Source: Escherichia coli (GTDB taxonomy: Bacteria; Pseudomonadota; Gammaproteobacteria; Enterobacterales; Enterobacteriaceae). Taken from it: a stretch of DNA of 64,000 bases. Position numbers and translations under genes: made by a program. The notes beneath the pieces were generated by a model. That model worked only from the letters and a program-made list of their open reading frames with translations, had not been told where the DNA came from and made no database searches. Position 1 is the stretch's first letter; each line of letters starts with the position of its first letter. Of this stretch, positions 23,765 through 25,048 are shown in pieces. Where the stretch lies: assembly GCF_003334815.1 (NCBI RefSeq), contig NZ_QOWO01000020.1. The stretch is one strand, 5' to 3'.

Positions 23765-23891
23765 GCGAGTGAATCTTTCGTGCTATTCGAGTCATATTCT
23801 GAAATATCCAGCGGATCAAGAAAATTCGTTGGATATTTTTTTTGCATGGATAAAATTATCGCCTCTAAAGTATGTAATAACAGGGAATGTG

Positions 23892-24932
23892 ATGAAAAAA
23901 GTTTTATTACAAAACCATCCTGGGAGCGAGAAGTATTCTTTTAATGGCTGGGAAATATTTAATAGTAATTTTGAACGGATGATTAAAGAAAATAAGGCCA
24001 TGCTGCTTTGTAAGTGGGGGTTTTATTTAACATGTGTTGTCGCTGTAATGTTTGTGTTCGCAGCGATAACATCCAACGGTTTGAATGAAAGAGGCCTGAT
24101 TACCGCGGGATGCTCTTTTCTTTATCTATTAATTATGATGGGGCTTATTGTTCGGGCCGGTTTTAAAGCAAAAAAAGAACAACTGCATTATTATCAGGCT
24201 AAAGGTATTGAGCCGCTCAGTATCGAGAAGTTACAGGCGCTACAATTGATCGCACCTTATCGATTCTATCATAAGCAATGGTCTGAAACGCTGGAGTTCT
24301 GGCCGCGAAAGCCTGAACCTGGCAAAGATACCTTCCAATATCATGTGCTTCCTTTTGACTCGATCGATATCATAAGTAAAAGACGCGAGTCTTTAGAGGA
24401 TCAATGGGGTATCGAAGATAGCGAAAGTTATTGTGCCTTAATGGAGCATTTTCTTTCTGGCGACCATGGAGCCAATACCTTTAAAGCAAACATGGAGGAA
24501 GCCCCAGAGCAGGTTATCGCCTTGTTGAATAAATTTGCTGTTTTTCCCTCAGACTATATCTCTGATTGCGCTAATCATAGCTCCGGTAAATCCTCGGCGA
24601 AGCTAATATGGGCGGCGGAATTATCATGGATGATCTCGATATCAAGCACAGCTTTTCAAAACGGGACAATTGAAGAAGAACTGGCCTGGCATTATATAAT
24701 GCTTGCTTCTCGAAAGGCGCACGAGTTGTTCGAAAGCGAAGAAGATTATCAAAAAAATAGTCAAATGGGATTTCTTTACTGGCATATCTGCTGCTATCGC
24801 AGAAAGTTAACGGATGCTGAACTTGAAGCGTGTTATCGTTACGACAAGCAGTTTTGGGAGCACTACAGTAAGAAATGCCGTTGGCCCATAAGAAATGTTC
24901 CGTGGGGAGCATCATCCGTTAAATACTCATAA
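23892..24932 (+). CDS. ynjI: DUF1266 inner membrane protein YnjI (346 aa)
   Basis: ORF track 23769..24932 trimmed to ATG 23892 (MKKVLLQNHPGSEKYSF...). Markedly AT-rich coding sequence. Confidence 0.85.
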   Translation: MKKVLLQNHPGSEKYSFNGWEIFNSNFERMIKENKAMLLCKWGFYLTCVVAVMFVFAAITSNGLNERGLITAGCSFLYLLIMMGLIVRAGFKAKKEQLHYYQAKGIEPLSIEKLQALQLIAPYRFYHKQWSETLEFWPRKPEPGKDTFQYHVLPFDSIDIISKRRESLEDQWGIEDSESYCALMEHFLSGDHGANTFKANMEEAPEQVIALLNKFAVFPSDYISDCANHSSGKSSAKLIWAAELSWMISISSTAFQNGTIEEELAWHYIMLASRKAHELFESEEDYQKNSQMGFLYWHICCYRRKLTDAELEACYRYDKQFWEHYSKKCRWPIRNVPWGASSVKYS

Positions 24933-24946
24933 ACGCCTGAAATTTT

Positions 24947-25039
24947 GCCGGGGGCGCTGCGCTTGCCCGGCCTACATTAGAGCGTAACTGCAATGAATTG
25001 TGCCCATTTGTAGGCCTGATAAGCGTAGCGCCATCAGGC
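24947..25039. repeat. pair of inverted REP elements (BIME-like) between ynjI and gdhA
   Basis: GCCGGGGGCGCTGCGCTTGCCCGGCCTAC (24947-24975) and GTAGGCCTGATAAGCGTAGCGCCATCAGGC (25010-25039), in opposite orientations. Classic REP palindromes with GCCTAC ends. Confidence 0.8.
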
Positions 25040-25048
25040 ATTTACAAC

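Follow-up and report, generated by a model that had tools for sequence, protein, structure and literature searches.

The AT-rich gene ynjI, a probable long-standing accessory gene at the topB-gdhA junction of Escherichia coli

The gene ynjI, which encodes a predicted membrane protein with a DUF1266 domain, lies between the convergent core genes topB and gdhA in a 64,000-nt stretch of Escherichia coli DNA (assembly GCF_003334815.1, contig NZ_QOWO01000020.1), referred to below as the window. We propose that ynjI is probably a genuine accessory gene, maintained under purifying selection in a long-standing variable spot between these two core genes, with the locus history and protein role described here. 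It would have entered the junction before Escherichia and Pseudocitrobacter separated, would then have been lost many times, and would have moved among strains and species through homologous recombination within the conserved flanking sequence, with breakpoints in the topB tail, in the interior of the ynjI 5' end and in a repetitive extragenic palindromic (REP) element. Its AT-richness would not mark a recent arrival but would be a lasting trait of a gene that is expressed weakly, under partial repression by H-NS/StpA and activation by BglJ-RcsB. Positions 23400-25400 of the window are 100% identical to E. coli K-12 strain records annotated topB, ynjI and gdhA, and the order of genes is sppA (- strand), ydjA, selD, topB (21803-23764, +), ynjI (+) and gdhA (-).

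Age and variability of ynjI at the junction

The preliminary description of this DNA had pointed to the AT-rich character of ynjI relative to its neighbours, and the calculation agrees. GC content and GC content at third codon positions (GC3) are 41.3% and 41.8% in ynjI, against 55.1% and 58.9% in topB and 53.3% and 54.5% in gdhA. The 127-bp spacer upstream of ynjI (23765-23891) has 35% GC. The rarest codons (AGA, AGG, ATA and CTA) are used 14 times in ynjI versus 0-6 times in neighbouring genes, and an equal AT-richness is reached by only 2% of 1041-bp segments of the window. Other stretches of about 1 kb that are similarly AT-rich (at most 43% GC) were observed at 13551-15170, 46621-48020, 49101-50710 and 54751-56780.

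Between K-12 and Pseudocitrobacter, the number of synonymous substitutions per synonymous site (dS) is 1.32 for ynjI, 1.33 for topB, 1.41 for selD and 1.90 for gdhA; between K-12 and Escherichia sp. EC7003 it is 0.29 for ynjI and 0.13-0.73 for the flanks. Because its dS equals that of the flanks, ynjI has diverged in step with its neighbours, and a recent acquisition therefore does not fit. Comparisons of orthologs gave ratios of nonsynonymous to synonymous rates (dN/dS) of 0.06-0.14. When 5.8 billion proteins were searched, only eight YnjI clusters were found, and all orthologs with a visible context (58-91% identity) sit between topB and gdhA. One of them, with 80% amino acid identity, is carried by a human gut metagenome contig resembling Pseudocitrobacter faecalis, whose flanks are 98% identical to those of a type strain that itself lacks ynjI. 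Other metagenome contigs carry one ortholog of 60% identity whose flanks are related to Pseudocitrobacter and one of 58% identity beside a Citrobacter-like gdhA. These three orthologs and the divergent E. coli allele described below have 39-44% GC.

The distribution of the gene across species was examined by using TopB as a query against one genome per species, which gave 80 loci. ynjI was found in one of them, that of Escherichia sp. MOD1-EC7003 (91% amino acid identity), and was absent from the other 79, including E. albertii, two other Escherichia lineages, Salmonella, and all Citrobacter, Klebsiella and Enterobacter. In most Enterobacteriaceae the gap between topB and gdhA is usually 10-150 bp. 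The presence of a normal-GC ynjI in all enterobacterial relatives had been named as the observation that would speak against an insertion; the comparison with Salmonella, Citrobacter and Klebsiella shows the opposite. The idea of an old insertion at topB/gdhA thus holds in two respects, ynjI being an extra gene relative to the ancestral adjacency and being as old as its flanks, and fails in a third, since it is not fixed in E. coli.

This polymorphism was quantified in 5426 complete E. coli genomes, all of which carry the topB and gdhA flanks. The whole K-12 locus occupies the junction in 3480 genomes, and any form of ynjI in about 3498 (64%). An empty junction with a 76-bp spacer, as in sequence type 131 (ST131), was found in 1514 genomes, and a cassette encoding an HscC-like Hsp70 and one or two J-domain/Sel1-repeat proteins in 362. 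A divergent ynjI (allele 2, 68% amino acid identity) was present in 13 genomes when the gene alone was used as query; a longer query at a threshold of at least 95% identity gave 28, a count inflated by shared spacers. In other E. coli genomes the junction contains the insertion sequences (IS) IS1397 and IS1414, or IS1 with a deletion reaching spy. The topB-gdhA site is therefore polymorphic in E. coli, with at least four states among K-12-type ynjI, the mosaic allele described below, the empty junction, the Hsp70/J cassette and IS-disrupted forms. The Hsp70 of the cassette (E. coli Rb-3, locus L004, 6001-12040; also locus L005, 6001-9937) is 43% identical to HscC; its J-domain/Sel1 partners are 650 amino acids long and a dispersed 127-bp repeat resembling the enterobacterial repetitive intergenic consensus (ERIC) lies upstream.

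The variable block is not limited to the intergenic region, as it also takes in about the last 250 bp of topB. K-12 and the ST131 empty haplotype are 79.5% identical over the last 240 bp of topB, compared with 97.4% in the 1 kb before that. When E. coli haplotypes with ynjI are set against empty ones, dS is 1.0 and dN 0.12 over the final ~80 topB codons, versus a dS of 0.14 for the first 570 codons. The K-12 TopB tail peptide is identical to that of one Pseudocitrobacter genome, and the spacer and TopB tail of the empty haplotype resemble those of other Escherichia species. The TopB tail is hypervariable and linked to the haplotype, in both peptide and total protein length (653, 651 or 648 amino acids). 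In E. albertii NBRC 107761 (locus L016, 6154-6234), the topB frame stops about 27 codons early, with the usual tail-coding sequence after it; either the truncation is genuine or the assembly is in error.

Allele 2 (locus L007, 6001-7032, compared with window 23892-24932) has a mosaic structure. Its spacer and codons 1-45 are nearly those of K-12 (dN 0, dS 0.2), the remaining codons show synonymous saturation, and at the REPs the two sequences are again 95-100% identical. This pattern points to old or cross-species recombination, with a putative breakpoint inside ynjI. On the gdhA side, the REP pair downstream of ynjI had been thought to bound the insertion. The same REP-linker-REP element is nevertheless present in Pseudocitrobacter junctions that lack ynjI (loci L022 and L025), in one case rearranged; the REPs hence belong to the topB-gdhA spacer and are not a scar of ynjI insertion. 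The variable segment begins in the topB tail and ends immediately ahead of the REPs.

The 3' flank of topB appears as a general hotspot, since several genera hold unrelated cargo directly after this gene: a MurR/porin/N-acetylmuramic acid (MurNAc) phosphotransferase system/PBP4B set, Hcp with unknown genes of 36-39% GC, a tripartite ATP-independent periplasmic (TRAP) transporter, a talarate dehydratase/major facilitator superfamily/LysR set, or a tyrosine recombinase. Such cargo was observed at L055 (5775-11424), L059 (9936-13967), L062 (9987-13532), L077 (9948-13763) and L053 (10048-11079). The gdhA side varies as well. Because gdhA is absent between topB and ynjH-nudG in Cedecea, Buttiauxella, Serratia, Yersinia, Rahnella and Hafnia (loci L064, L065, L068, L070, L071, L073, L078 and L080-L092, at about 9900-10300 in most), it was either gained here by some Enterobacteriaceae only or lost by the other lineages. 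In Cedecea, Buttiauxella, Serratia and Yersinia topB directly adjoins ynjH-nudG.

Competing explanations for the locus

According to one alternative, ynjI is a recently acquired foreign gene, a xenogeneic islet derived from an AT-rich donor. Low GC content, rare codons and partial repression by H-NS/StpA (PMC3950696) are in its favour, together with the absence of the gene from Salmonella, Citrobacter, Klebsiella and E. albertii and its presence/absence pattern within E. coli. The composition, codon use and patchy distribution of ynjI are indeed those of an islet. However, its divergence is not younger than that of the flanking core genes, orthologs occupy the identical site in other genera, and the topB-tail haplotype block is as old as the genus split. 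Hallmarks of mobility are also missing: we found no integrase open reading frame (ORF) between topB and gdhA, no direct repeats, no tRNA and no Rfam match when 22500-27000 and 20000-29000 were scanned, and no genuine copy of ynjI on a plasmid or phage, the sole plasmid match being a 4.8-Mb record and the sole phage match a 1.9-kb fragment. Recent acquisition appears distinctly unlikely. A second possibility is that ynjI is a decaying, functionless remnant, possibly of a larger island, on its way to loss. Null alleles are in fact common. In the W42amber lineage, codon 42 has changed from TGG to TAG (window 24015-24017; locus L105, 1375-1380), leaving a 264-residue truncated product with 752 member sequences; IS1 has inserted repeatedly in several unrelated genomes, IS10 has inserted in ynjI of a heat-evolved K-12 strain (PMC10044804), many ynjI fragments are found in Shigella, and 36% of E. 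coli genomes have no ynjI. No published phenotype was found, the literature on ynjI and DUF1266 dealing with regulation only and reporting no function. Decay is nevertheless unlikely given a dN/dS of 0.06-0.14 sustained over saturating synonymous divergence, a confident fold prediction, motifs kept across phyla, a specifically regulated promoter, and a 346-residue frame that most carriers keep intact (the full-length cluster has 4802 members).

It has also to be considered that YnjI and the cassette of HscC-like Hsp70 and J/Sel1 proteins are alternative modules of one system under balancing or niche-specific selection. The two are mutually exclusive at the same junction, the haplotypes are very old, the ybeQ-hscC region of K-12 groups DUF1266, J-domain, Sel1 and Hsp70 genes, and in Klebsiella spallanzanii, too, topB is followed by an Hsp70/J/Sel1 pair (locus L033, 13839-17545; Hsp70 77% identical to that of the E. 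coli cassette). On the other hand, the sugar-acid, MurNAc and TRAP transporter genes, Hcp and the recombinase found at the same spot in other genera argue for a general hotspot, the J/Sel1 proteins have no similarity to YnjI, and the empty state is common. This explanation is improbable in our opinion.

Several points weigh against our proposal of an old accessory gene under selection. Selection for ynjI is weak or conditional, because null alleles (W42amber, IS1) are common and more than a third of E. coli genomes do without the gene. Vertical descent with many losses requires dozens of independent deletions, and, where only one pair of species is compared, an infrequent transfer between species through homologous flanks could look like co-divergence. 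The edges of the indel are blurred by REP turnover, so that no deletion or insertion scar is readable. Finally, the GC3 of ynjI has not shifted towards the host value despite a dS above 1, and we can account for this only by way of an assumption.

In K-12, ynjI is annotated and its regulation has been published, and in that sense it is already known; its population and cross-genus history is a modest addition. It illustrates that a low GC content is no proof of recent acquisition: ~41% GC has been kept over genus-level time beside neighbours of 55% GC, in a gene that persists across genera as a presence/absence and allelic polymorphism of a single junction. The naturally occurring haplotypes (intact, W42amber/IS nulls, empty and HscC-like cassette) are ready material on the roles of DUF1266 and of the poorly understood HscC/DjlB/DjlC branch.

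Features of the ynjI region and of its product

The features of the locus are listed in the table below. Read mechanically, the ORF of ynjI runs from a GTG at 23769 to 24932. The start assigned from the sequence is the ATG at 23892, because a Shine-Dalgarno AGGGA (23882-23886) precedes it, because MKK are the first residues aligned in all YnjI orthologs, and because the YnjI equivalog family PRK11380 of NCBIfam covers residues 1-346, at 671 bits versus a curated cut-off of 386. The GTG was considered as a start and rejected, since the BglJ-RcsB box precedes the published start site and the orthologs are conserved from the ATG onwards.

Features of the topB-ynjI-gdhA region (window coordinates)
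Feature	Position	Strand	Basis
topB 3' end, basic C-terminal tail, part of the haplotype block	23500-23764	+	K-12 versus ST131 empty haplotype comparison
TATTCTGA, matching the wwTTCykA core of the BglJ-RcsB box	23795-23802	+	read from sequence; inferred placement
Hairpin and T-run, candidate topB terminator	23801-23848	+	16-pair stem followed by TTTTTTTT
Putative ynjI promoter (TTGGAT, 16 nt, TAAAAT)	23829-23856	+	sequence reading and published box-to-start distance (PMC3950696)
ynjI coding sequence, 346 amino acids	23892-24932	+	ORF; NCBIfam PRK11380; ortholog dN/dS; AlphaFold2 model
Two predicted transmembrane helices forming a hairpin, codons 39-89	24006-24158	+	hydropathy and charge distribution; AlphaFold2 model
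DUF1266 domain, codons 167-338	24390-24905	+	Pfam PF06889
Inverted REP pair, BIME-1-like, linker ~34 nt, in the spacer common to ynjI and gdhA	24947-25039	.	repeats, fold, recurrence
gdhA, right-hand core flank	25049-26392	-	ORF and annotation of identical K-12 records

The AT-rich spacer between topB and ynjI contains several putative signals. The ynjI promoter is activated by BglJ-RcsB, and ynjI expression is moderately higher when hns and stpA are both mutated; a BglJ-RcsB box is located 65-68 bp upstream of the ynjI start site and its mutation abolishes promoter activation (PMC3950696). A motif of this type is kept as AATTCTGA in the Pseudocitrobacter ynjI ortholog, and the upstream regulatory elements are conserved there. 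The promoter proposed in the table was not called by a consensus promoter scan. The hairpin, which is kept in all ynjI-bearing haplotypes and folds at -24.8 kcal/mol (z -2.4), looks with its T-run like a topB terminator.

The inverted REP pair that had been described downstream of ynjI was confirmed at the same coordinates, between the stop codons of ynjI and gdhA. Its left REP (24947-24975, GCCGGGGGCGCTGCGCTTGCCCGGCCTAC) and right REP (25010-25039, GTAGGCCTGATAAGCGTAGCGCCATCAGGC) stand in inverted orientation, and the pair is predicted to fold at -49.9 kcal/mol as RNA (z -4.1). It has the structure expected of REPs in a type 1 bacterial interspersed mosaic element (BIME-1), with imperfect palindromes of ~30-35 nt that end in GGCCTAC and form an inverted pair around a short linker in extragenic DNA. 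It also belongs to a dispersed repeat family: the 16-mer REP core recurs in a canonical BIME-1-type REP-linker-REP element at 52470-52580 of the window, with a similar linker (TGCAATATATTGAATTTGCA), and the 107-bp element matches 1-5 places per E. coli genome by blastn. Dispersed copies were sought with this 16-mer and blastn; a hand-written consensus in IUPAC (International Union of Pure and Applied Chemistry) code was too strict and gave zero matches.

The assignment of ynjI as a DUF1266 membrane protein gene was borne out by a match to PF06889 (E 2.9e-25, all 175 positions of the model) and by two hydrophobic segments, at about residues 39-59 and 69-89. AlphaFold2, run with 64 sequences, gave an all-helical fold with a predicted local distance difference test (pLDDT) score of 93 and a predicted TM-score (pTM) of 0.89, in which the corresponding helices span residues 36-60 and 66-104. 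No related solved structure was found for this fold. A search of AFDB50 returned only other DUF1266 proteins. The positive-inside rule suggests an N-in/C-in topology, in which both termini and the DUF1266 domain would face the cytoplasm. Taken together, YnjI might be anchored in the inner membrane by the helical hairpin, with a QNHPG motif and the DUF1266 domain in the cytoplasm, and might most likely act alone as a membrane-tethered binding or scaffold module, or perhaps as a partner or client of a membrane-located HscC/DjlB/DjlC Hsp70 system; these roles are put forward tentatively.

YnjI had been called an orphan, which it is not. An exhaustive profile search retrieved 501 clusters at E<1e-3 across several phyla, and the 48 at E<1e-30 share the whole architecture of N-terminal QNHPG motif, two transmembrane helices and DUF1266. 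Homologs of this YnjI type occur in Xenorhabdus, Hafnia, Pragia, Acinetobacter, Chitinophaga, Haliangium and Microbacteriaceae, and residues Q7, N8, Q97, Y100, W130, P138, W240 and W266 are near-invariant. In seven contexts of distant YnjI-type homologs no shared neighbours were found, the genes standing alone. One distant gene (locus L100, 1-8130) lies in a run of unannotated genes beside a gene for a 1145-residue YobI-ATPase and a weak Sel1 match, a context that may be defence-island-like. No PADLOC defence model and no PHROG matches YnjI.

K-12 has two DUF1266 paralogs of ynjI, ybeR and ybeU, which overlap djlB and djlC, respectively, by 4 bp and lie near hscC and two Sel1 genes; hhalign aligned the YnjI family to YbeU with a probability of 95% (E 2.7e-8, 159 columns). 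The alternative cargo at the ynjI site is likewise an Hsp70 of HscC type with J/Sel1 proteins, which may be a coincidence since the junction takes many kinds of cargo. A link between YnjI and the HscC/DjlB/DjlC chaperone system, for which we rely on PMC8215388, is proposed here as a lead only. Genomic linkage to this system is seen for ybeR and ybeU only: no J-domain or Hsp70 gene was found beside ynjI or in the seven contexts of YnjI-type homologs. In its boldest form, the lead would make DUF1266 a module that binds clients or partners for an HscC-type Hsp70 network located at the membrane, YnjI being the form of the module tethered there, and the junction a trans-species polymorphism, of network pieces or nothing, kept by selection and not by chance; we consider this very doubtful. 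The notion that YnjI is a J-less remnant of the cassette J-domain proteins was discarded, as the two share no sequence similarity.

Comparison with known systems

The REP pair resembles the BIME-1 or repetitive IHF-binding palindromic (RIP) elements, in which paired REPs flank a linker with a site for integration host factor (IHF). The REPs are inverted tail to tail, the ~34-nt linker contains CTGCAATGAATTG where the canonical copy at 52470-52580 has CTGCAATATATTG, and the element lies between convergent genes. It differs in that its left REP is an atypical GCCGGGGGCG variant. Its linker is a candidate IHF site by sequence resemblance to the canonical copy.

YbeR and YbeU, encoded in the ybeQ-ybeR-djlB-ybeT-ybeU-djlC-hscC cluster, share with YnjI the DUF1266 Pfam domain, and all three proteins are uncharacterised. 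In contrast to YnjI, they are soluble proteins of 235 amino acids without the QNHPG motif and the transmembrane hairpin, and each is translationally coupled to a J-domain gene, whereas ynjI is monocistronic and has no chaperone neighbour. Pairwise BLASTP similarity between YnjI and these proteins is marginal only.

With the H-NS-silenced, BglJ-RcsB-activated loci (bgl, leuO, chiA, yecT and others), ynjI has in common an AT-rich promoter region, a mapped BglJ-RcsB box and a moderate rise in expression in the hns stpA background (PMC3950696). It differs from them in that it is not recent foreign DNA. Finally, the topB-gdhA junction is comparable to the integration and recombination hotspots located between core genes of E. 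coli, with fixed core flanks, alternative cargo, accumulation of IS elements and possible exchange by flank homology. It is distinguished from these hotspots by a cargo of one gene and, in E. coli, by having neither a tRNA nor an integrase. Furthermore, ynjI dates back to the genus split, its divergence has kept pace with that of its flanks, and the divergent block takes in the tail of topB.

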